NCBI GenBank assembly: GCA_002747515.1
Contig: PDPP01000016.1
Coordinates: forward strand, 50,369-114,368
Direction: 5' to 3'
DNA: 64,000 nt
Origin: Candidatus Moraniibacteriota bacterium
GTDB lineage: Bacteria; Patescibacteriota; Minisyncoccia; Moranbacterales; GCA-2747515
Numbering within the stretch: position 1 is the first letter of the stretch; every line of letters starts with the position of its first letter. Positions 2,583 to 40,033 of this stretch are shown piece by piece. Both the position numbers and the translations under genes were made by a program. Under the pieces are notes generated by a model. The model was not told the origin of the DNA, did not search any database, and saw only the letters and a list, made by a program, of their open reading frames with translations.

Positions 2583-3905
2583 ATGTTAGATATTAAATAT
2601 ATTCGTGGAAATGCGGATAAAGTACAAAAGGCAGCGGAAAATAAAAATATTGAAATTGATGTGAAAAAATTTCTCATTCTTGATCAAGAGCGTGTTGGTT
2701 TGATAAAAGAAATAGAGGCTTTACAGGAGAAAAAAAATAAAATTAATACACAAATTAAAGAAGCATGTAATGATCAAGAGCGAAAAAAAATTATTGCAAA
2801 AGGAAAAGAGATAAAGGAAAAAATTGATGTTGTGAAATTACAGGTAAAAGATATCGAAGAAAGATACAACACTTTGATTAAAAAAATACCAAATATCCCA
2901 ACAGAAGATACACCAATTGGAAAAACGGAAGATGAAAATGTTGTTGTTTATGAATGGGGTAAAAAACCAGAATTGAAATTTGATGCAAAAAATCATTGGG
3001 AATTAGCACAAAATAATGATTGGATTGATAAAGAGCGTGCTGCAAAAGTGACAGGGGCGCGTTTTGCTTATCTTAAAGGAGACTTGGTGATATTGCAATT
3101 AGCACTTATGCAATACGTAATGGACACATTAACTGATGAAGAAAAAATTGCAGAAATTGTAAATCATTTTGATGTCGGTGATATTGAAACAAAACCATTT
3201 ACGCCAGTATTTCCACCATTTATGATTCGTACAGAGATGTTTGATGCAATGGACCGACTTGAACCACGAGATGATCGTTATAAGATCGAGGGTGAGGATT
3301 TGTGGTTACAAGGTTCTGCAGAACATGTTCTTGGCGCATTGCATTGTAATGAAATTCTTAATGAAGAAGATTTGCCTTTTCGATACATTGGGTATGCAAC
3401 AAGTTTTCGTAGGGAAGCTGGCACATATGGTAAAGATATGGAAGGAATTATTCGTATGCATCAGTTTGATAAATTGGAAATGGAAATAATTGCAACACCA
3501 GAACAAGGACTTAATGAGCATTTTTTGACAATTGCTGTACAGGAATATTTATTGAGAAATCTAAAATTGCCATATAGAAAATTATTGAAATGTACAGCAG
3601 ATATTGGTAAACCAAATGTACGTGGAGTTGATATGGATGTTTGGCTTCCAGGTCAAAAAGCGTATCGTGAGACACATACAGCTGATTATATGACTGATTA
3701 TCAATCTCGACGATTAAAAACGCGTGTGCGTTTGGCGGATGGCACATTGGCATATGTTCATACAATTGATGCAACTGCGTTTGCATGTGGTCGTGCATTG
3801 GTTGCAATTTTGGAAAACTTCCAACAAACAGACGGAAGTGTTGTAGTGCCAGAAGCGTTGCGACCATATATGTCTGGTGGAAAAGATAAAATTACAAAAA
3901 AGTAA
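2583..3905 (+). CDS. serS: seryl-tRNA synthetase
   Basis: MLDIKYIRGN start, N-terminal coiled-coil arm, class II core; 440 aa. Confidence 0.93.
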   Translation: MLDIKYIRGNADKVQKAAENKNIEIDVKKFLILDQERVGLIKEIEALQEKKNKINTQIKEACNDQERKKIIAKGKEIKEKIDVVKLQVKDIEERYNTLIKKIPNIPTEDTPIGKTEDENVVVYEWGKKPELKFDAKNHWELAQNNDWIDKERAAKVTGARFAYLKGDLVILQLALMQYVMDTLTDEEKIAEIVNHFDVGDIETKPFTPVFPPFMIRTEMFDAMDRLEPRDDRYKIEGEDLWLQGSAEHVLGALHCNEILNEEDLPFRYIGYATSFRREAGTYGKDMEGIIRMHQFDKLEMEIIATPEQGLNEHFLTIAVQEYLLRNLKLPYRKLLKCTADIGKPNVRGVDMDVWLPGQKAYRETHTADYMTDYQSRRLKTRVRLADGTLAYVHTIDATAFACGRALVAILENFQQTDGSVVVPEALRPYMSGGKDKITKK

Positions 3906-14629: not shown

Positions 14630-14827
14630 ATGGCAGTACCAAAACAACGACAGAATTCATCACGACGTGATCGCCGACGTTCACATAACATCGGAAAGAT
14701 TAAAACAGAAATTACACAAAAATGTAGTTCTTGTGGTGAACAAAAGCTTCCACATCGCGTGTGTGATGCATGTGGCACGTATCGTGGCGTACAATACAAA
14801 GAGATTGTGAAAAAAGTTAGTGCATAG
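14630..14827 (+). CDS. rpmF: 50S ribosomal protein L32
   Basis: MAVPKQRQNSSRRDRRRSH with a CxxC...CxxC zinc ribbon. Confidence 0.85.
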   Translation: MAVPKQRQNSSRRDRRRSHNIGKIKTEITQKCSSCGEQKLPHRVCDACGTYRGVQYKEIVKKVSA

Positions 14828-15463: not shown

Positions 15464-16153
15464 ATGATGAATACAAAACGTTTTGCAAATATTTGTGGCA
15501 TTTCACTAAAAAATGCTGATTTTTTTATTGAGGCAATGACACATCGTTCTTACTTAAATGAAAACAAAAAACATGCTTTTCCGCACAATGAACGGCTTGA
15601 GTTTTTGGGTGATGCAGTTTTGGAACTCATTGTAACAGAATACTTATATCATGAATTTGATAATCCCGAAGGAGAGATGACCGCGTGGCGTGCAGCACTT
15701 GTTAATGGAGAGATGCTTGCTCGTGTGGCGCGTGAGATTGGTATTGAGGAATTTCTCATGATGAGTAAGGGTGAGGCAAAGGATATAGGAAAAGCGCGAA
15801 ATTATTTATTGGCAAATGCGATGGAAGCAATCATCGGAGCATTGTATCTTGATGGAGGATATGAAAACGCTAAGGCATTTATTTATAAATGGATTATTGC
15901 GCATATGGAAGAAATTTTAGAGAAAAAGCTTTATCTCGATCCAAAAAGTTATTTTCAGGAAAAAGCACAGGAACAACAAAATATTACACCACACTATAAA
16001 TTGATATCTGAATCAGGTCCAGATCATGATCGTGTTTTTATTGTTGGTGTGTTTCTCGGAGAAGAAGAAGTTGCACAAGGTACTGGAAAAAGTAAGCAAG
16101 ATGCACAACGTGACGCTGCTAGAAAAGGGTTGGAAAAAAAACAATGGTTATAA
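15464..16153 (+). CDS. rnc: ribonuclease III
   Basis: ERLEFLGDAVLELIVTEYLY signature plus C-terminal dsRBD. Confidence 0.9.
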   Translation: MMNTKRFANICGISLKNADFFIEAMTHRSYLNENKKHAFPHNERLEFLGDAVLELIVTEYLYHEFDNPEGEMTAWRAALVNGEMLARVAREIGIEEFLMMSKGEAKDIGKARNYLLANAMEAIIGALYLDGGYENAKAFIYKWIIAHMEEILEKKLYLDPKSYFQEKAQEQQNITPHYKLISESGPDHDRVFIVGVFLGEEEVAQGTGKSKQDAQRDAARKGLEKKQWL

Positions 16154-16251
16154 AATTGACGCACAATAAGAAATTCTATAAAATATATTATTAGTTACTT
16201 TAAACAAAGTAATAAAGGAGTATTTTAGTTGTTTAAAAAATTATAAGTGAG

Positions 16252-17187
16252 GTGAAAATGCAAAGTTATCGGACTCTTCTTAAAACACATTTCCCAGAAT
16301 TAAAACTAATTAATCGGGGCAAAGTAAGGGATTTGTATGGCATTCCTAATCATCCGGATAAATTACTTTTTGTAGCTACAGATCGCATTTCTGCGTATGA
16401 TGTGATTATGAGTGAAGGCATCCCAGGAAAAGGACGTGTACTTACTGCAATGTCATTATTTTGGTTTGATTTTTTTTCGGATATCTCAAATCATCTAATT
16501 ACAGCTGATGTTTCTGCGTATCCAGAGGAGTGTCAGAAGTATGTAGACACACTTAATGGTCGGAGCATGTTGGTAAAAAAAGCACATGTTTTGCCGTTTG
16601 AGTGTATTGTACGAGGTCGTTGGACAGGATCTTATTGGAATGCATACAAAAAGGCAAGTATCCAAAAAACAGAATCACCGCTTGTATCTTTTAAAGAAAT
16701 CTGCGGCTTTAGATTTTCCACAGACATCAAAGAAAATGATTTGATTGAACCACCACTTTTTACACCGAGTACTAAAGCAGAATATGGTCAACACGATGAA
16801 AATATCTCTATTGATTATATGAAGACAATTATCGGTGAAGAACGTGTAAAAAAAGTAAGTCAGATGGCTACGTCACTTTTTGAACGTGCGGCAAAATATG
16901 CTTTGACAAAAGGAATTGTCATCGCAGATACAAAATTTGAATTGGGGGAAATTGAAGGAGAAATTGTTTTGATTGATGAAGTTTTAACACCAGATTCTTC
17001 GCGATTTTGGCCAAAAGAACATGTAAAACGTGGTGTGACACCACCAAGTTTTGATAAACAATTTTTGCGTGATTATTTGATATCTATTAACGCAAAAGGA
17101 CAAAATCCACCACCTGAATTGCCAAGAGAGGTAATTGAAAAAACTGCGCAAAAATATGAAGAAGCACATATGTTGTTGACAAGATAA
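16252..17187 (+). CDS. purC: phosphoribosylaminoimidazole-succinocarboxamide synthase (SAICAR synthetase), long form
   Basis: GKVRDLYGIPNHPDKLLFVATDRISAYDV; 311 aa. Confidence 0.85.
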   Translation: MKMQSYRTLLKTHFPELKLINRGKVRDLYGIPNHPDKLLFVATDRISAYDVIMSEGIPGKGRVLTAMSLFWFDFFSDISNHLITADVSAYPEECQKYVDTLNGRSMLVKKAHVLPFECIVRGRWTGSYWNAYKKASIQKTESPLVSFKEICGFRFSTDIKENDLIEPPLFTPSTKAEYGQHDENISIDYMKTIIGEERVKKVSQMATSLFERAAKYALTKGIVIADTKFELGEIEGEIVLIDEVLTPDSSRFWPKEHVKRGVTPPSFDKQFLRDYLISINAKGQNPPPELPREVIEKTAQKYEEAHMLLTR

Positions 17188-17237
17188 TTACTTACATGAC
17201 TTATCCAAAATATATTTTGGATAAGTCTTTTTTCTTA

Positions 17238-18083
17238 TTATTCAATAACTTGTTCAACAATAGGATAGTTATATTTTTTCCATGCTGCAAATCCACCTTT
17301 GATTGTTTTTGCATTGATATATCCAAGATCATAAAGCAGAACGCCCGCTTGAAAACTTGCACTCTCATCAGTGCCATAAATATAAATTTCTTTTGTGCGA
17401 TGCAGTTCTTTGTAGCGAGACTCAATTTCTAAAAAGGGAATGTTTATTGCTGTTGGTATATGCCCTTTTGTATAATTACCATTTCGACGCACATCAATGA
17501 CCATAATTTTTTCTGCACGTATAGGTTTTCGTAATGCACCATCAAGATCACGTGGTTCGACAAATTGTACTTTGCCAGATGTTACAAATGTTGGTGTACT
17601 ATTGAGTGATAAAAGAGCACGACCTTCTTTCTGCCATTGATTAATACCGCCAGTAAGATTGTATACTGTTTTTGTTTTGGAAATATCTCTATAGTGGTTC
17701 ACAATAAGGTCTTCATTGCCAGTTGTTGTGACAAATATAATTGTTCTTGCAGCATCTGCAATATTTATGTGTTCTAATGGAACACTTCCGCGAATATGTC
17801 CAGATTCATGATGTACAGTAGAGCGTGCATCAATAATTGTAATCTCTTCATCTGAATTCATTTTTTTGCTTAATTCAACTGTAGATATTTCAGGAATGAT
17901 TTTTTCAGGCGCAATTTCTTTTTCAGGTTCTTTTTGGACTTTTTCTTCCGTAATCATGCTTTCTTCAAGTAGTGTTTTCTCTTTTTTTTCTTGCGAAGAA
18001 AAATATTGCATAAGTGTCCATGTTGTTATGCCGATGATTCCAAGAATTGTTATTATAATGATATTTTTATCTGTTTTTTTCAT
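17238..18083 (-). CDS. membrane-anchored tandem rhodanese-like protein, catalytic Cys apparently absent
   Basis: Two rhodanese folds (GGINQWQKEG and IKGGFAAWKKYNYP) and an N-terminal TM; neither active-site loop contains Cys. Confidence 0.65.
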   Translation of the reverse strand: MKKTDKNIIIITILGIIGITTWTLMQYFSSQEKKEKTLLEESMITEEKVQKEPEKEIAPEKIIPEISTVELSKKMNSDEEITIIDARSTVHHESGHIRGSVPLEHINIADAARTIIFVTTTGNEDLIVNHYRDISKTKTVYNLTGGINQWQKEGRALLSLNSTPTFVTSGKVQFVEPRDLDGALRKPIRAEKIMVIDVRRNGNYTKGHIPTAINIPFLEIESRYKELHRTKEIYIYGTDESASFQAGVLLYDLGYINAKTIKGGFAAWKKYNYPIVEQVIE

Positions 18084-26495: not shown

Positions 26496-28448
26496 TTATA
26501 TGATGTGCACAGGATCAATATCAATACTCCATTTCGTATCGAGTGTCTTTAGATGAAAATCGAGTTCCTGTGGTAAAGTAGTATTTTCAATTTTGATAAT
26601 AATTTGCTTACGAAATTTTGTGCGTACTTTGTCAACGAGGGGAAAATGAGGTTCGGAAATAACAACATTTGATTTTGTGGATAATATTTTTTTTAAATCC
26701 TCGTACTCTTTTTCTGTAGATTCCTCAACGCTTTTTTTTGTAGTGTCTTTATGCATGAGTTTTATGAGTGTAGTGTATGGAGGATATTTTAATGTTTTTC
26801 GTAATGCACTCTCTTCTTTATGAAATCCATTAAAGTCATATTTTTGCGCATACTGTAATACAGGGTTTTCTGGTTCAAAGGTTTGCACGATTAATTTGCC
26901 ATGTGATGTGCGTAGTGCCATTTGGATTACAAATGAAAATGCACGTTCATTTGTCGTGTAATCCGGAAGACTGAGTAAGTGATCTGCGTCAATGATTGCT
27001 GTGAGTCCGATAGAATTAGTTTGCCAATCTTTTGTAATCATTTGTGTGCCGATAATCACATCAATATTACCTGCTAAAAAATCATCGTAAATCTTTTTTT
27101 GCGCGTGAGTTGCTCCCATAGTGGATGTGTCTACTACAGCAATTCTCGCGTGCAAGATTTGTTTCTTAAGTTCTTTTTGAATTCGTTCTGTACCAATGCC
27201 TACATGTTCCATAGGAGCGTTGCATTTTTGACATTTTTTTGATGATGAAAATTTTGCATTACAATGAATGCAAATATGTTTTTCTTTATTTTTTGCTATA
27301 AGTGCACGTGTACATTGTGGGCAGGTGGCTACGCTACGACATTTTGAACAGATGGAAAAAGCACTCATCCCCTGACGATTAACAAAAAGTAGAGCTTGCT
27401 TGTTGTTTTTAATACAATTTCGTATATGTGCCACAAGCGTACGTGAAAGAGGTGATTTATTTTTATCCCAGCGTTCTTTTTTCATGTCAACAATTTCAAT
27501 TGGGGGTTTTTGATGATTTATGTAATCAATATATTTTCTGTCATGATTTATATTTCTGTATGTAAAATCAATAGTTCGTGGCGTAACTGATGTAAGAATA
27601 TGTACACACTGATGAAGTGAAGCGAGTTCTTCTGATACTCTGCGTACATCATAAAGTGGTGCATGTTCCCACTGTTTGTGAGATATGTCATGTGCATCAT
27701 CGACAATCACAGCGCCAAGATTGGTAAATGGTGCAAATAATGCACTGCGTGTACCAATAATTATTTTGATATTTCCAGATCTGATGTCACACCATTTTTT
27801 ATAGAACATGCCTTTTGACAGTTTGCTATGCAAAATAGCTACTTCTTCAGCAGGAAAAAATTGGTGAATAAATGTAGTAAAATATGGTGTTTGAATAATC
27901 TCTGGAAGGAGATAAAGTGTTTGAGTGGAGTTTTCTGCATTTCTTTTTGCAAGAGAAAAAAGTGTGGATACTTTCTCTGATTGGCGTGTTGCGTGAAAAA
28001 AGAATTTTTTATCATCTGTATATAAAAATTTTTCAATAAAGCTTTCTTGCGTATTTGTTGTAATGATTTTTTTAAGTGATGTTTTTTGAGAAACAGGTTG
28101 TTCACGTCGTGTGCCAATTTTTTGTGGTGTAAAGTGTTTGAGGACGACGCCAAGAGGGCAATAATATTTTTTTGAAATAAAAAATGCAAGTTGCAATTGT
28201 TCTTTTGTGAGAAATTTTTCTTCGATGACCATTTTAATTTTTTTGATTTCAAAAGTGCTTTCACGTGGAAAATCTTTTGTATTTTTTGTGACGATGCCTT
28301 GGACATTTCTTTTGCCAATAGGAATTTCAACATGTGTGCCAGGTGCGAGTGGGCGAGAAAATGTATAAAAAAATGATTGATCACGCAGTAAAGTGATGCG
28401 TGTCAGCGGTGCAACTGATATGAGAAATTGTGTGCTTGTTTTTTGCAT
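26496..28448 (-). CDS. priA: primosomal protein N' (PriA) with degenerate Walker A/B motifs
   Basis: Twin C4 zinc-binding insertion (CSKCRSVATCPQC...CIHCNAKF...CQKCN) and LLPEI/VIVDDAHD helicase motifs; at the P-loop position the sequence reads HATRQSEKVS instead of GxxGSGKT. Confidence 0.85.
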   Translation of the reverse strand: MQKTSTQFLISVAPLTRITLLRDQSFFYTFSRPLAPGTHVEIPIGKRNVQGIVTKNTKDFPRESTFEIKKIKMVIEEKFLTKEQLQLAFFISKKYYCPLGVVLKHFTPQKIGTRREQPVSQKTSLKKIITTNTQESFIEKFLYTDDKKFFFHATRQSEKVSTLFSLAKRNAENSTQTLYLLPEIIQTPYFTTFIHQFFPAEEVAILHSKLSKGMFYKKWCDIRSGNIKIIIGTRSALFAPFTNLGAVIVDDAHDISHKQWEHAPLYDVRRVSEELASLHQCVHILTSVTPRTIDFTYRNINHDRKYIDYINHQKPPIEIVDMKKERWDKNKSPLSRTLVAHIRNCIKNNKQALLFVNRQGMSAFSICSKCRSVATCPQCTRALIAKNKEKHICIHCNAKFSSSKKCQKCNAPMEHVGIGTERIQKELKKQILHARIAVVDTSTMGATHAQKKIYDDFLAGNIDVIIGTQMITKDWQTNSIGLTAIIDADHLLSLPDYTTNERAFSFVIQMALRTSHGKLIVQTFEPENPVLQYAQKYDFNGFHKEESALRKTLKYPPYTTLIKLMHKDTTKKSVEESTEKEYEDLKKILSTKSNVVISEPHFPLVDKVRTKFRKQIIIKIENTTLPQELDFHLKTLDTKWSIDIDPVHII

Positions 28449-28596
28449 GTTTTGTATTGTAGCACATAAAAAAACTACTAAGAAAATTATTTCTTTAATG
28501 GTTTTTTATAAAAAAGGAGTAAATGTATGTAAGAATATAATTTAATTAATTTGTCAATTGTTTTTTTGCAAAAAATAGCGTAAAATAAGGAATAAT

Positions 28597-29184
28597 TTGA
28601 TTAGTGATAGATGTATTTATTTTATGCAGAGAAAGATTTTCATCGGCATTGATGTGGATGTGCATTTGAAAAAAGCGATTACACGATCAGTAAAGCAATG
28701 GAAGGATTTGCCAATCAAATGGCATAAAGAAGATAGTTTACATATCTCATTACTTTCACTTGGTTGGGTGAGGGAGGATGATGTTTTAGATGTGATTGCA
28801 GTGCTTGCTAGTTTTTGTATGGAACACGCCACTCCTTTTAGTGTAGACTTTGAAAAGATTGAGGCTGTTGCAAAAGATCCGAAAGAGCATGACATCACAA
28901 AAGCACAAATTGTTCGTCTCATTGGGAAAGAGAGTGATCAATTGTACAAATTATATGTTGACTTAGCAGAAATTTTGCATGTGCCAATTGAAAAGAAAAA
29001 AGCATTTAAACCACATATTGAAATTGGACGTATGCGTGCAAAAAAATGGCAAAATATATCTTCATACCCCGAAAAAGTGATTTCATTTCTATTAAATATG
29101 GATGTAAGTACCATTACGCTTTTTGAGTTTGCGCATATTGATGGGAAAAGGGAAGTGATGCCAATTGAGGTGTTTGAGCTGTAG
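28597..29184 (+). CDS. RNA 2',3'-cyclic phosphodiesterase / 2'-5' RNA ligase family (ThpR/LigT, 2H phosphoesterase)
   Basis: Two H-x-T/S-x motifs (LHISLLSLG and KPHIEIGRMR) in a ~190-aa protein. Confidence 0.6.
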   Translation: MISDRCIYFMQRKIFIGIDVDVHLKKAITRSVKQWKDLPIKWHKEDSLHISLLSLGWVREDDVLDVIAVLASFCMEHATPFSVDFEKIEAVAKDPKEHDITKAQIVRLIGKESDQLYKLYVDLAEILHVPIEKKKAFKPHIEIGRMRAKKWQNISSYPEKVISFLLNMDVSTITLFEFAHIDGKREVMPIEVFEL

Positions 29185-29196
29185 TAAGTTTATCAT

Positions 29197-29922
29197 TTGT
29201 CATTGAGTATGTCACAAAAAAATGATGTGTACGTTTTTGGTGTCAGTGTGAATAATGTCTCTTATGATATAATTTTAGAAACAATCACTCAATTTTTGAA
29301 AAGTTCTACATATCATCATATCGTCACACTTAATCCAGAAATTTTATTAAAAGCGTACAAATCTTTTCAGTACAAAAAAATATTAAATGACGCTGCTCTT
29401 GGTGTTGTAGATGGTATCGGATTGTATATTGCATTGTGGCGACGCGGTAAAAAACTGCACACACGTATTACAGGTGTAGATCTTATGCATGAAGTTTTGA
29501 AAAGAGTTGATGATTGCTCCGGAAAAGTATTTTTAGCAGCACATATAGATGGATTGAGTTCATGGACAGAAACAAAAAACAGTCTTGAGGTACGTTATCC
29601 CCATATTATATTTTCTGGAAATGATATTGATCCACGTGACGTAAATTATAATCATATTTCTGTTGATGTTATTTTATGCAATTTTGGTGCACCTGAACAG
29701 GAAATTTTTTTGAGCAAAATGCAAAATACAAATGCAAAAATTGGTATTGGTGTAGGTGGTGCATTTGATTTTGTTACAGGTGTTGTACCTCGAGCGCCAC
29801 GATGGATGCGTACATGGGGTCTAGAATGGCTTTATAGATTATATAAACAACCACGACGCTTTAAGAGAATTTATAATGCAGTTATTGTATTTCCACTGAA
29901 AGCATTGTGGAATAATAAATGA
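29197..29922 (+). CDS. WecB/TagA/CpsF family glycosyltransferase
   Basis: VVDGIGL ... GVGGAFDFVTGVVPRAPRWMRTWGLEWLYRLYKQPRR is the family signature. Confidence 0.75.
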   Translation: MSLSMSQKNDVYVFGVSVNNVSYDIILETITQFLKSSTYHHIVTLNPEILLKAYKSFQYKKILNDAALGVVDGIGLYIALWRRGKKLHTRITGVDLMHEVLKRVDDCSGKVFLAAHIDGLSSWTETKNSLEVRYPHIIFSGNDIDPRDVNYNHISVDVILCNFGAPEQEIFLSKMQNTNAKIGIGVGGAFDFVTGVVPRAPRWMRTWGLEWLYRLYKQPRRFKRIYNAVIVFPLKALWNNK

Positions 29923-31439
29923 TAAATAATATAAAGATTATGGCAGAAGAAAAAAAAGATGTTCGTGTACGTTTTGCACCATCGCCAACAGGAGAATTGC
30001 ATATTGGTGGTTTGCGTACAGCACTTACAAATTATCTTTTTGCAAAGAAAAATAATGGCACATTTATTTTGCGAAGTGAAGATACTGATCAGGGACGTTT
30101 TGTAGATGGTGCAGCAAAAAGACAAATTATAGATATGGTGTGGTCTGGCATCACTATTGATGAAGGTGTTGTAATTGATGATAATGGTGATTTAACAGAA
30201 ATTGGTGAATATGGACCATATATACAATCAAAACGTCTTGATATTTATAAAAAATATGTAGAACAACTTCTTGATGAAAAAAAAGCATATCATTGTTTTT
30301 GCACACCGGAGCGCTTACAAGAAATGCGACAAAACCAACAAGCAAATAAAAAAGCGCCAAAATATGATCGCCATTGCTTACATTTCTCAGAAGATGAGGT
30401 GCAAAAACGAATTGAAAGAGGAGAAAAATATGTTGTACGATTTAAGATTCCAGAAGGGAAGACGGCCTTTGATGATTTGGTATACGGGCACATTGTAGTG
30501 GAAAATGATACGCTTGATGATCAAGTAATTATGAAGTCAGATGGATTTCCGACATATCATCTCGCAGTTGTGATAGATGATTATTTGATGAAGATTTCGC
30601 ATGTTTTTAGAGGTGCTGAGTGGATTGCAAGTACACCAAAACACATTTTGCTTTATCAGGCGCTAGGATGGGCAGAAGAAACACCAATCTTTTGTCATAT
30701 GGCAAATATCCTTGATAAAAGCAAAAAGAAACTGTCAAAACGCGACGGTAGTGTGTCAGTAGCAGATTTTCGTAAAGAAGGATATTCTAAGCAAGCCATT
30801 ATCAATTTCATTGCACTTTTGGGCTGGAATCCAAAAACAGAACAAGAGATTTTTAACATGGATGAACTGATCGCACAATTTGATACAGAGAAAATGAACA
30901 AAGCAGGTGGCGTTTTTGATCGTGACCGACTTGCATGGATATCAAAAGAACATATGAAAAAAATGTCTGTTGATGAAATTTATGAAAATGCATTGCCATT
31001 TTTACAAGAAAAAGAATTCTATAAAAATGCATCTGAAGAACAAAAATCAGAAGAGTATATTAAAAAACTTATTACAGTAGAACACGATCGTTTAGAAAAA
31101 TTCACTGACATTGGTGAAGAAAATCAATTTTTCTTTGCACAAGAAATTGTATGTGACAAAGAACTTGTACGCTGGAAAGAAAACAGTGATGCAAAAACAC
31201 AGGAAGCACTGGAAAATGCAAAAGAAGTGTTGTCACACATTGATGAAAATGATTGGACACGTGAGATGCTCGAGAAAAAACTCATGGAAGCAGCAGGTGA
31301 AAAACGCGGAGATTTCCTCTGGCCACTACGCGTTGCACTCACAGGAGAAAAACGCTCACCAAGCCCATTTGACTGCGCATGGGTGCTCGGGAAAGATGAA
31401 ACACTACAACGCATAAAAAACACGTTGCATATAATATAA
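29919..31439 (+). CDS. gltX: glutamyl-tRNA synthetase
   Basis: RFAPSPTGELHIGGLRTAL (HIGH) and KLSKRDGS (KMSKS); 506 aa. Confidence 0.92.
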   Translation: MINNIKIMAEEKKDVRVRFAPSPTGELHIGGLRTALTNYLFAKKNNGTFILRSEDTDQGRFVDGAAKRQIIDMVWSGITIDEGVVIDDNGDLTEIGEYGPYIQSKRLDIYKKYVEQLLDEKKAYHCFCTPERLQEMRQNQQANKKAPKYDRHCLHFSEDEVQKRIERGEKYVVRFKIPEGKTAFDDLVYGHIVVENDTLDDQVIMKSDGFPTYHLAVVIDDYLMKISHVFRGAEWIASTPKHILLYQALGWAEETPIFCHMANILDKSKKKLSKRDGSVSVADFRKEGYSKQAIINFIALLGWNPKTEQEIFNMDELIAQFDTEKMNKAGGVFDRDRLAWISKEHMKKMSVDEIYENALPFLQEKEFYKNASEEQKSEEYIKKLITVEHDRLEKFTDIGEENQFFFAQEIVCDKELVRWKENSDAKTQEALENAKEVLSHIDENDWTREMLEKKLMEAAGEKRGDFLWPLRVALTGEKRSPSPFDCAWVLGKDETLQRIKNTLHII

Positions 31440-31662
31440 GACAACATATGTATATACCATCTTTTGAAAAACTAGTATCACAAAACGAGGTATATCAAAA
31501 AAACTTTGATCAATTTGCAAATGAAAGTGACGTTTTTAATGTATTTGCACAATTATATTTTTAAACCTACTTTTTATTGCACAGCTAATTTGCAAAACAT
31601 ATGGTAAAAATGCTTTTGTGAAAGATATCATATCAGGTTTGGTTCGACGCCTCTAAATACAT

Positions 31663-31693
31663 ACACTACGTAGTATAGTAGTGTGTGGTTTTT
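31663..31693 (+). terminator. orphan intrinsic terminator-like hairpin
   Basis: acactac gtagtata gtagtgt followed by gtgg ttttt; ~230 nt downstream of gltX with no ORF in between. Confidence 0.35.
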
Positions 31694-31990
31694 ATTTGGA
31701 AGTATTTGATTTTGTCACAATGTGTTATGGATATCGTTGGATATTTTGACGTGTGAGTTTTAGACTGTGTGAGGGTGTGCAGAATGTACGATTTCTCTTG
31801 GATATAATGTGCTTATGAATAAAAAGATTTCTTCTTATTTATAAAAAATCTGAAGCACAGAGATTGTGGTAGATGTCATCAATAATATCTTTGTGGTAAA
31901 GCAAAACCGCTCTTGTAATTGCCTATGGAGAGATCTCTGGGTTATCAATATTATGATGTTTTCAGCACGCTCCATGTGAAAAAATGCGTA

Positions 31991-32344
31991 TTAGTTCACT
32001 TTTCGAAATGCGACGCTATATGTTGGCTCATAAAGATTATCATATTCATCACGTACTTCTACAGTTTCACCATCCATCATTGTTGAAAGAGAAATGTCTG
32101 ACATCATTTCTTGGAGAGATTTTATTTCACCTTTGAGTTCTTCAAGTTTTTCCCAACGCATGCCCATATCACGTTGTGCACTAAGCTCATGTTGTTTTTT
32201 AATTTCTCGAAGATCATGTAATTTTTCTATAATTTCTTGATATTTTACATCTTGTACTAAGACGTCTTTATATTCTTTGCGAATTTCTTTCATTTCCTTT
32301 TTTGCCTCTTGCATTTCATTAAAAACTTCTTGCACATCTTTCAT
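31991..32344 (-). CDS. coiled-coil hypothetical protein
   Basis: 117 aa, K/E-rich heptad-like N-terminal region, short beta-rich C-terminus; no family. Confidence 0.4.
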   Translation of the reverse strand: MKDVQEVFNEMQEAKKEMKEIRKEYKDVLVQDVKYQEIIEKLHDLREIKKQHELSAQRDMGMRWEKLEELKGEIKSLQEMMSDISLSTMMDGETVEVRDEYDNLYEPTYSVAFRKVN

Positions 32345-32517
32345 ATATTTTTTAATTAGTATTTATATATACAAAAAATATTATAGCACATAACTGTAGG
32401 GGAGTGGATACTTTAATAAAAAAAAGAGTAATAATATTTTTTTAGAAATTACCGCAAAGTATATATATCATTGTATACAGGACTTTTTATTTTGTAAAAA
32501 TAATTGTAATAATTTTT

Positions 32518-32531
32518 TTATGTCGCACAAT
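32518..32531 (+). repeat. half-site copy (ttatgtcgcacaat) of the dif-like arm
   Basis: Exact 14-mer shared with the copy at 32793 and with both arms of the 33078-33105 palindrome. Confidence 0.6.
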
Positions 32532-32792
32532 ATAAGTAGTATATTTTTCAATTTAATAAGGGGAATATGTGTATAATATAAAATGTAAAAAATATTTGTA
32601 ATATATAGTATTTGTTAAAAACAAAAAAAATTTAAAATAAATTTATGATGAAAATTTTTTATGATGCAAGTCAAAAAATAATAAATTTTTATAAAAAACG
32701 CAATATATTGATATATAAATATACAAATAATAAAATAAGCACAATAAGTTGTAATTTTTCGCATACTATAAGGTATAAATATATTACTTATT

Positions 32793-32806
32793 TTATGTCG
32801 CACAAT
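32793..32806 (+). repeat. half-site copy (ttatgtcgcacaat) of the dif-like arm
   Basis: Same 14-mer, 275 bp from the first copy and 283 bp from the palindrome. Confidence 0.6.
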
Positions 32807-33077
32807 GTATCATCTCTTTTTTAAAGAATGATGGAAAGTTATAACACATATTATCAATCATATAACCTTAACACAAACGGTAAGATCCTAAAATAAGTTT
32901 AGGATGAAAAAAAATGTCTTTGGTTTTATATTATAAAATAGTATTAATTGATTATCATAATGAAAAATGATTATTGATTATACGATAAAAAACAAAGCTA
33001 GGTATCTATACTATATGTAGTAATAAAAACTTAATAAAACACTGTAATATACAAGGTATAGTTGTATATTATATGTT

Positions 33078-33105
33078 ATGTCGCATAATATACATTGTGC
33101 GACAT
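33078..33105. repeat. dif-like Xer recombination site (11-bp arm / 6-bp centre / 11-bp arm palindrome)
   Basis: atgtcgcataa-tataca-ttgtgcgacat. The reverse complement gives ATGTCGCACAA-TGTATA-TTATGCGACAT against E. coli dif GGTGCGCATAA-TGTATA-TTATGTTAAAT: identical central TGTATA and ~20/28 identities overall. It sits in a 1.1-kb AT-rich gene desert at the gene-orientation switch. Confidence 0.55.
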
Positions 33106-33450
33106 ATTATATAAAAATATAATATTTCCCATTTTTCTCTCATTATTACATATATAAAAAATACTTTCGTCTGTACATTTATATAAAAAAGGTGCTCTAC
33201 TACGAAGAAGCTTACATTGTGTCTACACGGTATAATTATGCATTTTATCAACATTGTAGATATACACGCATATATTCAAAAAATTTTTTCTTTTTTTCAT
33301 AAATTTTTCTTTTTCATTTTTATATTGAATAGTAATTTATTTTTTTCAGTATAAAATAGGTGATTAACTCAAAAATTGTTCTCACTTCCCTTTTAGAAAT
33401 TTATACTAAAAAAGACCACTATGCATTATAGCGATCTTTATTCTGAAAAA

Positions 33451-33882
33451 TTATTTTTCAGGTATTTTTTTGCAAAAAAATGTTGTGTTAACTTTAGCGA
33501 ATCCATATTTTTTGTACAGTCCTTGTGCAGCTGCACGGGATTCATGACTTGTTAATTCAACTTGATTTGTTCGAGGATGTCTCATAGCCGCTTCTAGAAG
33601 TTCTTTCATCAATTTATCTCCATAACCATTACCACGTTCATCCTCGTGTACGACAATGTCATTTAATACTGTAATCCAACCGCGTGATTGTGCATAGTAT
33701 TTTGAAAGAGATCCATAAGCAATGATCTTTCCGCTTTTTTCCCCGACAAGACAAAGAATGGGCAACTTTCTCAATTCTTCGACAGTTTTTAATAAACATG
33801 CGTTTGGAGAAAGCTGCTTTAATAACTCATTAATTTCGTCACAAAAATCATCGTCATTGAGTAATCTAATCTTCACTTTCAA
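33451..33882 (-). CDS. GNAT family N-acetyltransferase
   Basis: VHEDERGNGYGDKLMKEL acetyl-CoA binding motif. Confidence 0.75.
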   Translation of the reverse strand: MKVKIRLLNDDDFCDEINELLKQLSPNACLLKTVEELRKLPILCLVGEKSGKIIAYGSLSKYYAQSRGWITVLNDIVVHEDERGNGYGDKLMKELLEAAMRHPRTNQVELTSHESRAAAQGLYKKYGFAKVNTTFFCKKIPEK

Positions 33883-33951
33883 TCCTCCTTTTTGTTAAAT
33901 AATATTTTACAGTAGGATCATATTCTAACATAATGTCAGTACACATGCAAT

Positions 33952-33980
33952 AAAAATCATCTTTTTAAAAGATGATTTTT
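33952..33980. terminator. palindromic terminator after pyrH
   Basis: aaaaatcatctttt aaaagatgattttt. Confidence 0.5.
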
Positions 33981-34015
33981 ACACACTGCCCTACTTTGTA
34001 AATAAACAGGGAAGT

Positions 34016-34726
34016 TTAGTTACTTTTGATAAGAGTACCTTCAAATTTTTCATCATTAAGATACGCTTTGAGGTTTTCTAAATTAGTGCCTTTTAAAGTG
34101 ACTACCTCAATGTCTTCTTTTTCAGCAAATTTAGCAGCAACTGGATCAAATGGCACATTCATACCAGGTGTCCATTTATCTGCATGTGTCATTTCACGAT
34201 ATTCCGCCCATGACAACTCTTCAATTTTTTTTGCATCAGGAAATTCTTGTGGATCTTTATCATAAATATAGTCAATGTTTGACAGATTTACAACTTTTTT
34301 AATGCCAAGGTAACGTGTTAATAATGCAGTATCATAATCAGTGGAAAAACCAGGTTTCCAACCAGCAGCAATCATGATTGGTTGTGTGCACTGATGAAAG
34401 TCTTCTAAATCATGAGGGTTTGTATTGATGCGTGGATGTGCATGATCGCGAAAAATTGTACGAATAAGATGCGCATTCATACGTGTTGCATGAATACCAA
34501 GCCAGTCTTTATCTTCATCATTTACTTCTTCGCAAATTGTACCAGCAGCTTCCGCATAACGTCGTGCTGTCTTACCGCCACCAGTAATAAAAACAAAACG
34601 TTGTTCTTTTGCTTTGATTTGTTCAAGAATTAGAGTACGAAATTCTTTTAGAAAATCAACGTTAATATCATTTGGCACAATGAGAGAACCGCCAAGATTT
34701 ACAATAAATGTTTTTTTTGCATCCAT
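34016..34726 (-). CDS. pyrH: UMP kinase, archaeal-type (amino-acid kinase family)
   Basis: FIVNLGGSLIVPNDINVDFLKEF...VFITGGGKTARRY closely follows the archaeal PyrH pattern (IGGSVL..P....D..FI ... VVGGGKLAR.Y); about 235 aa, shorter than bacterial PyrH. Confidence 0.65.
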   Translation of the reverse strand: MDAKKTFIVNLGGSLIVPNDINVDFLKEFRTLILEQIKAKEQRFVFITGGGKTARRYAEAAGTICEEVNDEDKDWLGIHATRMNAHLIRTIFRDHAHPRINTNPHDLEDFHQCTQPIMIAAGWKPGFSTDYDTALLTRYLGIKKVVNLSNIDYIYDKDPQEFPDAKKIEELSWAEYREMTHADKWTPGMNVPFDPVAAKFAEKEDIEVVTLKGTNLENLKAYLNDEKFEGTLIKSN

Positions 34727-34761
34727 AATTAATTATATATAATTACATATTACTTATAGAA

Positions 34762-35139
34762 TTATTTACATGATGTTGATTTTTGATAACCTTTTTGTAT
34801 TGCATCATTATCTGATATGAAACAGCGAAGGTTTTCTTTTGCAATTTTTTTGGCATATGTACATGATGGCGGATAATATTTTTTGCCTTTTATACTGCCA
34901 ACATATTTACAATTCTTTTTTGTTGTAGCCTCCTCCCCTTCCTCTTCAGTAGTGCAGGGAAGCATGAGTGGTTCTGTTTGTGGATACATTACAGTAATTG
35001 GATCAATTGATAGTCCCCTTCCCTGTAACACCCCAAAAACAAAGCATAGTCCACCAACTACAATCAGCCCTCCTCCATACACCACGTGTTTTTCGTGTAG
35101 TGTAATCCATGAGATTACACGAGAAAACATTCTTTTCAT
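34762..35139 (-). CDS. membrane-anchored protein with Ada-type Zn-binding (PF02805-like) domain
   Basis: GSIKGKKYYPPSCTYAKKIAKENLRCFISDNDAIQKGYQKSTSC fits KYH-P-C-...-N-.-F-S-.-EA-.-GY-.-C. Confidence 0.5.
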   Translation of the reverse strand: MKRMFSRVISWITLHEKHVVYGGGLIVVGGLCFVFGVLQGRGLSIDPITVMYPQTEPLMLPCTTEEEGEEATTKKNCKYVGSIKGKKYYPPSCTYAKKIAKENLRCFISDNDAIQKGYQKSTSCK

Positions 35140-35143
35140 ATCA

Positions 35144-35172
35144 TTGACAACATCTGACTTATTAGCTATACT
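35144..35172 (+). promoter_or_regulatory. sigma70-like promoter for rpmA (TTGACA-17-TATACT)
   Basis: ttgaca at 35144-35149, tatact at 35167-35172. Confidence 0.55.
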
Positions 35173-35227
35173 AGCACAGTATATAAATTTGTAAAAGATT
35201 TATCATTTTTACTAGTAATATCTAATT

Positions 35228-36447: not shown

Positions 36448-37734
36448 TTACTTTATTTCCTTCTCCGCTTTTTTTGAAAGTTTTTGAAATTCTTTATCTT
36501 TTTTGAGAATTTCCGGATCAACTTTTAGTGCCATGTCGTTAATACCGAGTAGTCGTATACCACTGAGTGATCGTACACGTGAAAGTGCGACATAGCCCAT
36601 ACCATATTCAAAACACTTCCTGAGATCGATTTCTGCGGCGTCTAGTGTCATGCCTTGACTTTTGTGAATTGTAATTGCCCATGCAAGCCGTAAAGGTAAT
36701 TGCATGATTTCTGCCAGTGTTTCATTTTCTTCTGTGAGTTCCCATTTCTCTGGATACACACTCACCTCTTCCCCATCAATAGTTTCTACAATAGGAAATC
36801 CGTCATCTGTAAAATCAACTACTGTACCAATTGTACCGTTAACATAGCCTTCATCAAAATTATTACGTATAAACATTACAAGTGCACCTTCTTTGAGTAT
36901 AAGTTTTTCTGGTGCAAGACAACTTTTTTTGAGTGCTTGGACGATACGTTCTTGCCCATCGTCAAGCATGTCATAGACATATGATTTACCAGGGATTTTG
37001 GCTAGTTTGCGTTCGTTAATTTTATCTACATCAATATTGTGTGTAAATAGTCGTGTCACATCGTCAGAAGAATCAAAATCTGTGCCCGTCTCTTGTAATT
37101 TTTCTACAGTACCTTCATTAACAGTGTTATTGCGAATATCGCCGAGTATCTGAATAATCTGATTGTCACAATGACGAAATTGCTCTGAGAGGTAGCATAT
37201 TTTTACATCCATTTCTTTCCAGATTTGTGCATCAAACACAAATCGTCTTTTGATGTCGGAGTCTTTAGTGATAATTGGTGGTAATTGAAAAAAATCACCA
37301 GAAAAGACAACTTGCATACCACCAAATGGTTCCCAACTTGCTCGTGCTAAGCGTGTAATTTTATTTATGAGATCTAATTGATGTGCATGAATCATCGAAA
37401 TTTCATCAATAATAAGAACACGAGTATTTTTTAAGCGTTCTTTGATAAGATGATTTTTGAGAATGTCTTTTATGTCTCTTTCACTAAGACTGTTATGGAT
37501 ACCAACACCTGACCATGAATGAATCGTGCGACCAGAAAGGTGTGTGGCAGCAATACCTGTTGCAGCTGTTACGGCATAACGCACATTTTCTTTTTTGAGA
37601 TGTGTGATGTATTGATTGAGGAGATATGTTTTTCCGCTTCCTGCTGGCCCTGTGAGGAAGACATTATATCCATCTTTGAGAATTTTAAATGCGATGTCTT
37701 GTTTCATCTTTATGTTTTTATGTGTACCTCTCAA
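36448..37734 (-). CDS. PIF1/RecD-like (AAA_30) ATP-dependent DNA helicase
   Basis: Walker A LTGPAGSGKTYLL, ATGIAA, IDEISM and C-terminal TIHKSQGMTLD ... YVALSRVRSLSGIRLL. Confidence 0.8.
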   Translation of the reverse strand: MRGTHKNIKMKQDIAFKILKDGYNVFLTGPAGSGKTYLLNQYITHLKKENVRYAVTAATGIAATHLSGRTIHSWSGVGIHNSLSERDIKDILKNHLIKERLKNTRVLIIDEISMIHAHQLDLINKITRLARASWEPFGGMQVVFSGDFFQLPPIITKDSDIKRRFVFDAQIWKEMDVKICYLSEQFRHCDNQIIQILGDIRNNTVNEGTVEKLQETGTDFDSSDDVTRLFTHNIDVDKINERKLAKIPGKSYVYDMLDDGQERIVQALKKSCLAPEKLILKEGALVMFIRNNFDEGYVNGTIGTVVDFTDDGFPIVETIDGEEVSVYPEKWELTEENETLAEIMQLPLRLAWAITIHKSQGMTLDAAEIDLRKCFEYGMGYVALSRVRSLSGIRLLGINDMALKVDPEILKKDKEFQKLSKKAEKEIK

Positions 37735-39571: not shown

Positions 39572-40033
39572 TTACTTATTTACAATTGTTACTATCACAC
39601 CAACTTTTATATTAGCACTATATTCAACAAGAACTTCTCGTGTTGTCAATTCTTTGAAGGGTGTGTCCAATTTAATCATCTTTTCTTTGACAACGATGCC
39701 ATGTTGTTTCTTAATTGCTTCAGCAATTTCTTTTTTTGTTACTGAACCAAAAAGTTTGCCATCTTTTGCTCGTGCTACAATTGTTACTTTTTTCTTTTCA
39801 AGTTTTTGTGCTTCTTTTTTCAATTTTTCTTGTAATTCGGCTTCTTTTTGTTTTTGTTTTTCTTGTTCACGCTCTGTTTGTGCAAGAACGTGCTTTGTCA
39901 CTGGCTTTGCAATGTTTTGAGGAATTAAACTATTAAATGCAAAACCATCTGCGACATTAACGATATCACCTTTTTTCCCTAATTTTTTATGATCTTGTAA
40001 TAGTATCACTTTCATACGATAGATATTATACAT
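39572..40033 (-). CDS. rplI: 50S ribosomal protein L9
   Basis: MKVILLQDHKKLGKKGDIVNVADGFAFNSLIPQN. Confidence 0.85.
   Translation of the reverse strand: MYNIYRMKVILLQDHKKLGKKGDIVNVADGFAFNSLIPQNIAKPVTKHVLAQTEREQEKQKQKEAELQEKLKKEAQKLEKKKVTIVARAKDGKLFGSVTKKEIAEAIKKQHGIVVKEKMIKLDTPFKELTTREVLVEYSANIKVGVIVTIVNK

Follow-up and report, generated by a model that had tools for sequence, protein, structure and literature searches.

A probable chromosomal dif site in the terminus region of a Moranbacterium and a related site family across the Candidate Phyla Radiation

A 28-bp palindrome within a 64,000-nucleotide stretch of DNA from a Candidatus Moraniibacteriota bacterium (contig PDPP01000016.1, positions 50,369 to 114,368 of the forward strand; this whole stretch is hereafter the window) is very likely the chromosomal dif site of this Moranbacterium, a sequence in the terminus region at which chromosome dimers would be resolved. 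The palindrome displays the 11-6-11 anatomy of Xer recombination sites, occupies a terminus-like position, is conserved in related species, and has counterparts in other genomes of the Candidate Phyla Radiation (CPR), some of them associated with Xer-like genes. A preliminary description of this DNA, made from the sequence alone, had proposed a dif-like site at a probable replication terminus, and this proposal is now supported by the GC skew, the convergence of transcription, the synteny of close relatives, the position of the wider site family and the Xer genes that adjoin the site elsewhere.

Anatomy and uniqueness of the core site

33078-33105, no strand assigned: core dif-like site, comprised of the arm ATGTCGCATAA (33078-33088), the centre TATACA (33089-33094) and the arm TTGTGCGACAT (33095-33105)

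The core 28-mer, ATGTCGCATAATATACATTGTGCGACAT, is located at 33078-33105, and its earlier characterization as a near-perfect palindrome of 11-6-11 architecture was borne out, the 11-nt arms being complementary at 10/11 positions on either side of a 6-nt centre. When reverse-complemented, the core has the same base as E. coli dif (sequence taken from PMC3025954) at 20/28 positions, including the entire TGTATA centre that the preliminary description had recognized as common to both. Kono et al. (PMC3025954) delineate dif sites by the presence of at least 5 dyad pairs at positions 7-12/17-22, and the core falls within this definition because 5/6 complementary pairs form at these positions.

With up to 3 mismatches allowed, the 64-kb window contains no other match to the core, and none of the shuffled controls (0/100) yielded a match. 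The exact 28-mer is absent from JGI metagenome contigs (0 matches), and an ENA contig of a related species (L178, discussed below) has the identical 28-mer. In addition, positions 27024-35196 of the window recur without change in a Logan contig from SRR6011893.

Position at the replication terminus

32345-33450, no strand assigned: AT-rich intergenic gap of 1106 bp (20.3% GC), containing the core together with both half-sites

The core is situated in an intergenic gap with a GC content of 20.3%, compared to 34.1% for the whole window. The gap bears no credible open reading frame (ORF), merely short spurious ones, in agreement with the 1.1-kb AT-rich, ORF-free stretch described previously, and it contains no tRNA and no Rfam family reaching its gathering score. 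Known RNAs were considered as candidates for this region and rejected, as permissive searches gave nothing but hairpin matches below threshold (STnc361, 25 bits versus 80; RAGATH-7, 18 versus 112). A decayed M23 peptidase gene between gltX and the core was likewise rejected: tblastn with the proteins of relatives against 31.4-33.5 kb recovered no such remnant, nor any other pseudogene.

The GC skew of the window is +0.2 to +0.3 across 1-31 kb and -0.1 to -0.28 across 34-64 kb, a change of sign that upholds the previously noted excess of G over C to the left and of C over G to the right. The cumulative G-C maximum, which the preliminary description expected at about 33 kb, was found within the window at 32,026, with a plateau continuing to ~33,000. 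Coding share follows the same pattern, with 73% on the '+' strand to the left of the core and 93% on the '-' strand to its right. The switch in gene orientation proposed earlier is therefore real, but its placement exactly at the palindrome was incorrect, because transcription converges between gltX (+, ending at 31439) and a '-' gene encoding a 117-aa protein (31991-32344). The core sits ~1.1-1.6 kb to the right of this convergence point, between two '-' genes.

Conservation in related Moranbacteria

The gltX neighbourhoods of three related species (loci L178, L179 and L180/L181), whose GltX proteins are 72-79% identical to that of the window, were compared. Long contigs from relatives include ENA ERZ21831104 ctg97414l (1.546 Mb) and JGI Ga0645781_00011 (1.179 Mb). 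These loci have a common gene order, namely priA (-), a ligT-like gene, wecG and gltX (+), followed by the 117-aa gene (-), a gap, an amino-acid-kinase gene (-) and a gene for a 125-aa protein (-). Each relative possesses one full site in the same intergenic gap: the identical 28-mer in L178, GTGTCGCATAATATACATTGTGCGACAC in L179 and ATGTCGCATAAGATACATTGTGCGACAT in L180. From left to right, the skew of these loci changes from positive to negative; its cumulative maximum precedes the site by 1-2 kb and coincides with the 3' end of the 117-aa gene, as in the window. A homologous site near the skew extremum, which had been put forward as a check on the terminus assignment, is thus present in L178, L179 and L180 in the same synteny. 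In L178, the closest relative, two inserted transposase genes (DDE_Tnp_1 and rve; 15792-17714) separate the dif core from the amino-acid-kinase gene, and the terminus gap therefore tolerates insertions.

A site family across the Candidate Phyla Radiation

A scan of 185,579 species genomes with the degenerate pattern TGTCGCANAANNNNNNTTNTGCGACA returned at least 119 loci (L001-L119), and all figures given for the family apply among the matches listed. By calculation, ~9 matches to this pattern would be expected by chance in 596 Gb at uniform base frequencies. The constancy of the arms in this sample is by construction, because the scan pattern fixed them. CPR labels are attached to 79 of the at least 119 loci, with one site per CPR assembly, and include Saccharibacteria, Paceibacterota, Moranii-, Nomura-, Magasanik-, Berkel-, Kaiser-, Doudna-, Beckwith-, Shapiro-, Yonath- and Harrisonbacteria, as well as Minisyncoccota. 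Closed CPR chromosomes with the motif include CP060229.1, OY282360.1, OZ244141.1 and OZ241963.1. The sole assembly to recur is that of Agaribacter flavus, whose three sites bear GC-rich centres and look unrelated.

Positions left free by the pattern are also conserved. An A precedes the arms at 79/118 loci and a T follows them at 71/118, while the centre takes the form T-A-T-A-T/C-C/A. At 72/118 loci, one arm has C and its partner A at the variable position. The family consensus is ATGTCGCACAA-TATATC-TTTTGCGACAT. Among the 75 listed loci with at least 1.5 kb on each side, the GC skew is higher to the left than to the right at 64 (85%), compared to 48% at control positions in the same loci (binomial p = 3e-10).

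Clustering of the flanking ORFs revealed a conserved neighbourhood, in which gltX and a coiled-coil, EnvC-like M23 peptidase gene flank the site on one side, with the genes for ribosomal protein L9 and the 125-aa protein across from them. Wherever they occur, these four genes are directed at the site (gltX 33/33, M23 39/39, 125-aa protein 23/23, L9 23/23). The A/T-type arm is faced by gltX (30/32), M23 (34/37) and murG (20/22), and the C-type arm by L9 (21/23), the 125-aa protein (21/23) and an S41 peptidase (19/20). The polarity of the site is fixed relative to its conserved flanking genes.

Seven loci with a CPR-type motif (L013, L017, L039, L041, L078, L084 and L098) have record titles naming Bdellovibrionales, Pseudomonadales or Gammaproteobacteria. 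Several of these metagenome-assembled genomes combine low GC with CPR-type synteny or a CPR-type recombinase, and GltX of the window and GltX of L098 share 64% identity; the seven titles look unreliable. Four loci of Marine Group II archaea (Poseidoniales) also bear the CPR-site arms TGTCGCATAA, in the form TTGTCGCATAA-N6-TTATGCGACAA at a GC-skew drop (L003, 1701; L007, 2253; L069, 7605; L118, 6517). Their arm sequences suggest a Xer specificity that is shared or was transferred.

Association with a Xer-family recombinase

At 13 of the at least 119 loci, the motif has a full-length XerC/XerD-like tyrosine recombinase gene at a distance of 0.3-1 kb, and wherever a xer gene adjoins the motif it is a single one. 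These genes mostly read away from the motif and are located on the A/T-arm side in 8/9 asymmetric cases. The encoded proteins comprise 309-324 aa. Three representatives score 230-246 bits against the XerC model and 209-243 bits against the XerD model, for which the equivalog cut-offs are 335 and 330, respectively. Against the NCBIfam XerA model they score 200.6, 202.4 and 223.5 bits, with one passing the cut-off of 220, and against XerS they score 119-156 bits, compared to a cut-off of 267. A sequence search of the PDB returned XerD (1a0p) at E = 2.5e-40, XerA at E = 9e-31 and XerH (5jjv) at E = 4.6e-12.

The action of one XerC/D-like recombinase on both arms appears somewhat better than an even prospect, and is favoured because the arms are near-identical over their full length and only a single xer gene adjoins the site. 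In the preliminary description, a single-recombinase system of the XerS, XerH or XerA type was suggested. The single recombinase remains plausible on these same grounds; the comparison with XerS/XerH was wrong in detail, as the proteins are XerC/D-like and of 309-324 aa, and some resemblance to XerA was found.

In L035 (~1920-1950), L082 (~1660-1700) and L094 (~3035-3065), the recombinase gene is preceded by an isolated half-site, TTTTGCGACATTTT, placed downstream of a TATAAT-like box and ahead of the ribosome-binding site; a Xer-like gene adjoins the motif in L019, L039 and L119 as well. The half-site ahead of the xer gene looks like an auto-regulatory operator, a layout that provides the best indirect sign that the adjacent recombinase reads the half-site sequence.

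For the core itself we infer recombinase binding, catalysis and a role in dimer resolution. In the proposed reaction, a tyrosine recombinase of the Xer family, whose gene would lie beyond the window, would place a monomer on either 11-bp arm; after synapsis of two sister sites, the exchange of strands over the 6-bp centre would reduce a chromosome dimer to monomers ahead of division. The difference at arm position 8, C versus A in the family and C versus T here, together with the asymmetric centre, would supply polarity. Small site asymmetries are known to set the order of events for XerS and XerH (PMC5357621).

Isolated half-sites beside the core

32520-32531, + strand: half-site 1, ATGTCGCACAAT, without a second arm, 176 bp upstream of the 117-aa gene (measured to its start codon)
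32795-32810, + strand: half-site 2, ATGTCGCACAATGTAT, without a second arm, repeating ATGTCGCACAAT

Two isolated half-sites, which the preliminary description did not mention, accompany the core in the same intergenic gap. The 16 nt of half-site 2 are the reverse complement of the right arm of the core plus its centre, and the stretch 32518-33107 accounts for the top four half-site scores of the window, at 19.6-21.8 bits compared to 14.4 for the next. The half-sites are orthologous between species: a type bearing 'CAATAT' is found at 32520 in the window, 13943 in L178 and 13678 in L180, and a type bearing 'CAATGTA', with conserved flanks, at 32795 in the window, 14363 in L178 and 13228 in L179. 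The rest of the intergenic DNA gave no alignment among the four Moranbacteria. All of their half-sites share one orientation and fall in the interval from the 117-aa gene to the core, none with a second arm, at distances of 275 to 764 bp from the core.

Half-sites recur in the wider family. At the chromosomal listed loci, extra copies of TGTCGCANAA occur at 0.151/kb within 1 kb of the core and at 0.012/kb beyond, an enrichment of 12.6-fold (34 observed versus ~2.7 expected). Where the arms are asymmetric, the half-sites lie on the A/T-arm side at 16 loci and on the opposite side at 3. By far the most of any listed locus are seen in L092, a Paceibacterota chromosome (OZ241963.1), where seven extra half-sites are gathered in ~400 bp (3481-3900) on one side of the core.

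Tandem duplication of 275- and 283-bp units was considered as an origin for the arrangement in the window and rejected, since global alignment of the units gave z = 0.2 against shuffles and TRF reported short AT repeats only. Common to the two units are the half-site and a short upstream patch alone. This patch, (A)AGGTATA-N-T-GTAT, lies 12-25 bp upstream of half-site 2 and of the core (window 32767-32794 and 33050-33077; L178 ~14760-14788). A small inverted repeat, GTGGTA-N6-TACCAC, occupies the equivalent position upstream of half-site 2 in L178 and L179.

The isolated half-sites may tentatively be taken as extra, conserved monomer-binding sites with a regulatory or architectural role. The variable spacing between half-site and core argues against a rigid accessory architecture, and of the two roles regulation is the better fit. 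That the half-sites are decaying integration scars is unlikely, a reading that fits poorly because they are orthologously conserved across species.

The motif on viral contigs

The motif is also present on 57 IMG/VR contigs classed as viral (L120-L176). These contigs are of low GC and display no skew drop, and mostly lack a recombinase gene in the sequenced part examined; some of their sites are accompanied by half-sites 50-100 bp away. In L143, L152 and L168, as well as in the Peribacteria-binned L063, the motif is found near the gene for a terminase large subunit, ~150 bp upstream of it in L063 and L168, and the part of these contigs examined contains no recombinase gene. The spans of this terminase group are as follows.

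L063, 4164-5748
L168, 5494-7107
L143, 10297-12501
L152, 6813-10329

As these contigs encode terminase, they presumably belong to tailed phages. No convincing attL/attR-like pairs bracketing elements were found on the viral contigs, and no bracketed prophage. The sequences suggest that the host recombinase may serve such phages, which could rely on it to integrate or to resolve multimers of their own.

Genes around the site

29919-31439, + strand: gltX (glutamyl-tRNA synthetase), conserved left flank, directed at the core
31660-31687, + strand: terminator-like hairpin ending the left (+) transcription unit (consensus scan only)
31991-32344, - strand: gene for a 117-aa coiled-coil protein with no family assignment, the sole gene between gltX and the core, reading away from the core
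33411-33439, - strand: terminator-like hairpin ending the right (-) GNAT unit (consensus scan only)
33451-33882, - strand: GNAT acetyltransferase, the first gene right of the core, directed at the core
34762-35139, - strand: 125-aa protein with a weak Ada Zn-binding-like match, conserved right flank of the CPR terminus neighbourhood
39572-40033, - strand: ribosomal protein L9, conserved right flank (Pfam L9 domains found on the L179 homologue)

The window carries the housekeeping genes serS, aspS, recJ, dnaB, priA, gltX, pyrG, pheT, secDF and secA. The start of gltX is probably at 29940, 7 codons downstream of the start of the 506-aa ORF, which would yield a 499-aa protein; GltX of the window is 100% identical to a protein encoded on a 121,560-bp NCBI contig and 60-72% identical to that of named Candidatus Moranbacteria/Moraniibacteriota relatives, which places the organism in the CPR (Patescibacteria). 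Unlike many CPR loci, the window contains no M23 gene, although gltX, the 125-aa gene and the L9 gene are retained in place. No FtsK was seen among the annotated genes of the window.

The 117-aa protein is 80-91% identical to its orthologues in L178 (13244-13597), L179 (12645-12998) and L180 (13057-13410), above the 72-79% observed for GltX, and a further orthologue is encoded in L015 (3683-4033). Its gene, whose start is preceded at 176-346 bp by a half-site, always adjoins the dif region, and the protein could be an accessory factor. A gene for a PIF1-family helicase (window 36448-37734, - strand) is also kept in L179 (16380-17633) and L180 (17505-18758), a few kb from the terminus site.

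Alternative explanations

Several observations weigh against the assignment of the core as a chromosomal dif site. The core coincides neither with the skew maximum nor with the convergence of transcription, lying ~1 kb away from each. As the preliminary description had stated, no xer gene was found in the window, the best match of a profile of the site-adjacent recombinases having E = 2.5 by hmmsearch --max. The presence of the motif on viral contigs means that it is not exclusive to chromosome termini; the scan pattern fixed 18/26 positions, and per-genome counts are lower bounds; and the distance between half-site and core varies widely in the Moranbacteria. The occurrence on viral contigs also bears on a possible origin of the palindrome as the attachment site or remnant of an integrated mobile element or phage that employs a tyrosine recombinase of its own or of the host, with the half-sites as hybrid att scars. 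One phage group bears the motif ~150 bp upstream of its terminase gene, a recombinase gene is adjacent in 13 listed loci, and extra half-sites lie beside the core, each of which could be anticipated for such an element. However, the flanks are housekeeping genes in an order common to distant CPR lineages, relative to which the polarity of the site is fixed, and a single site is found per CPR assembly among the matches listed, at a shift in skew. The 275- and 283-bp segments bear no ORF, no mutual similarity (z = 0.2) and no second arm, and half-sites orthologous across species are unexpected of scars, all of which renders a mobile-element origin improbable.

It is also quite unlikely that the motif is bound by some other terminus or regulatory protein, such as a fork-trap protein, a MatP/matS-like organiser or a transcription factor at its operator. 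Palindromic operators are common, several half-sites cluster here within 600 bp, and one of them lies upstream of the 117-aa gene, with others elsewhere upstream of a xer gene. Yet the 11-6-11 layout, the TGTATA centre and the inner CA-AA/TT-TG dyad are all dif-like, Xer-like recombinases are the only specific recurrent neighbour family besides the housekeeping genes, and each locus has one full site where the sites of an organiser would be expected to be dispersed. Least probable is that the palindrome serves as a hairpin only, be it a bidirectional terminator or a small-RNA stem. An 11-bp stem with a 6-nt loop could form, the position between transcription units would suit it, and a sub-threshold Rfam match to STnc361 was obtained (25 bits versus a gathering score of 80). 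Against this, no T-run follows the stem on either strand, the terminator scan did not list the palindrome, and the flanking units are already closed by the terminator-like hairpins at 31660-31687 and 33411-33439; moreover, both the primary sequence and the loop are conserved across phylum-level lineages, and isolated half-sites cannot fold in this manner. A chromosomal dif site thus remains the preferred explanation of the palindrome.

Significance

The function proposed for the site is an ordinary one; its recurrent half-sites and the occurrence of the motif on phage contigs are what was unexpected. In the large dif survey of 2011, TM7 is not mentioned (PMC3025954). Full-text literature searches returned no description of dif or Xer for Patescibacteria, CPR or Saccharibacteria, an absence within one collection and not proof. 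The 2011 survey reportedly predates the CPR genomes.

All of the CPR, and perhaps Marine Group II, might possess one ancient dif system, in which a single XerC/D-like recombinase would act on a symmetric core with a polarity fixed relative to the conserved terminus genes, half-sites on the A/T-arm side would control the recombinase gene or influence the synapse, and terminase-encoding phages would bear the site in order to exploit the host recombinase for integration or multimer resolution; this broader proposal is speculative and, for now, rather doubtful. Once function is demonstrated, the status of a 'variant' could be justified by the symmetry of the arms, the fixed site polarity, the half-sites and the copies on phages. 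The symmetry, the polarity and the half-sites raise the question of how what is probably a single Xer recombinase gains directionality and control.

If the dif assignment is right, the motif would provide a sequence marker of the replication terminus for CPR/Patescibacteria genomes, nearly all of which are metagenome-assembled, in organisms whose cell cycle is almost unstudied. In the form A-TGTCGCA-N-AA-N6-TT-N-TGCGACA-T, it could be used to orient assemblies, to check closure and to anchor estimates of replication rate. It may further help to find phages or other elements that exploit the host recombinase, and could offer a defined target for site-specific integration in a group where genetics is just beginning.

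Comparison with known systems

Integrative mobile elements exploiting Xer (IMEX), typified by CTX-phi, TLC-phi and the gonococcal genetic island (PMC5357621), resemble the present system in the dif-like sites found on phage contigs mostly without a recombinase gene in the part examined, and in the extra dif-like half-sites beside the chromosomal core. They differ in that no cargo lies here between the half-sites and the core (275-283 bp, ORF-free, with no second arm) and no bracketed prophage was found. Known IMEX phages are filamentous or satellite phages, whereas those encountered here encode terminase and are presumably tailed.

Accessory repeats or sequences that bind the recombinase are known from other recombination sites, as in the internal resolution site of Tn4430 TnpI, where the inverted repeats of the core are joined by two direct repeats; native FRT has a third 13-bp element, and cer and psi have accessory sequences. 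The CPR sites are comparable in their palindromic core and in extra half-sites that occupy one preferred side (16 versus 3 at listed loci) and mostly face the core. Spacing in those systems is tens of bp with fixed phasing, in contrast to the hundreds of bp, varying from 275 to 764 bp, seen here, and these long and variable distances make a role in the topology of synapse doubtful.

The XerS-difSL system of streptococci and lactococci and the XerH-difH system of Helicobacter and Campylobacter also employ one recombinase, with small site asymmetries setting the order of events, and as in these modules, a recombinase gene adjoins the site in 13 of the at least 119 family loci. Unlike these modules, no xer gene adjoins the site in the window. 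Furthermore, the centre of the 31-bp difSL spans 11 bp, compared to 6 bp here, and the arms of difH are different (PMC5357621); XerS and XerH are ~355 aa in length, compared to 309-324 aa for the CPR recombinases, which score 119-156 bits against an XerS cut-off of 267 and match XerH at E = 4.6e-12.

The archaeal XerA-dif system, reviewed in PMC5357621 and represented by the Pyrococcus abyssi site ATTGGATATAA-TCGGCC-TTATATCTAAA (PMC4640148), differs in that the host here is bacterial, the arms differ from those of the Thermococcales site and the recombinases are nearer to XerD than to XerA in the PDB sequence search. It shares with the CPR sites a 28-bp, 11-6-11 structure with near-identical arms (10/11 here), the logic of a single recombinase, and a recombinase gene that is sometimes beside the site and sometimes distant; one of the three CPR recombinases also passes the NCBIfam XerA cut-off (223.5 versus 220).

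In the canonical XerC/XerD-dif system of E. coli, B. subtilis and most bacteria, the dyad is limited to the inner 5-6 bp and the outer parts of the arms distinguish XerC from XerD, whereas the arms of the CPR site are alike over their full length (10/11). The CPR recombinases score at ~244 bits, compared to cut-offs of 335 and 330, only a single xer gene is adjacent, and isolated half-sites lie by the core, features that further set the CPR sites apart. At the same time, the two systems have in common a 28-bp site of 11-6-11 architecture with a TGTATA centre and 20/28 bases shared with E. coli dif, and the CPR recombinases score best on the XerC and XerD models and on the XerD structure 1a0p.

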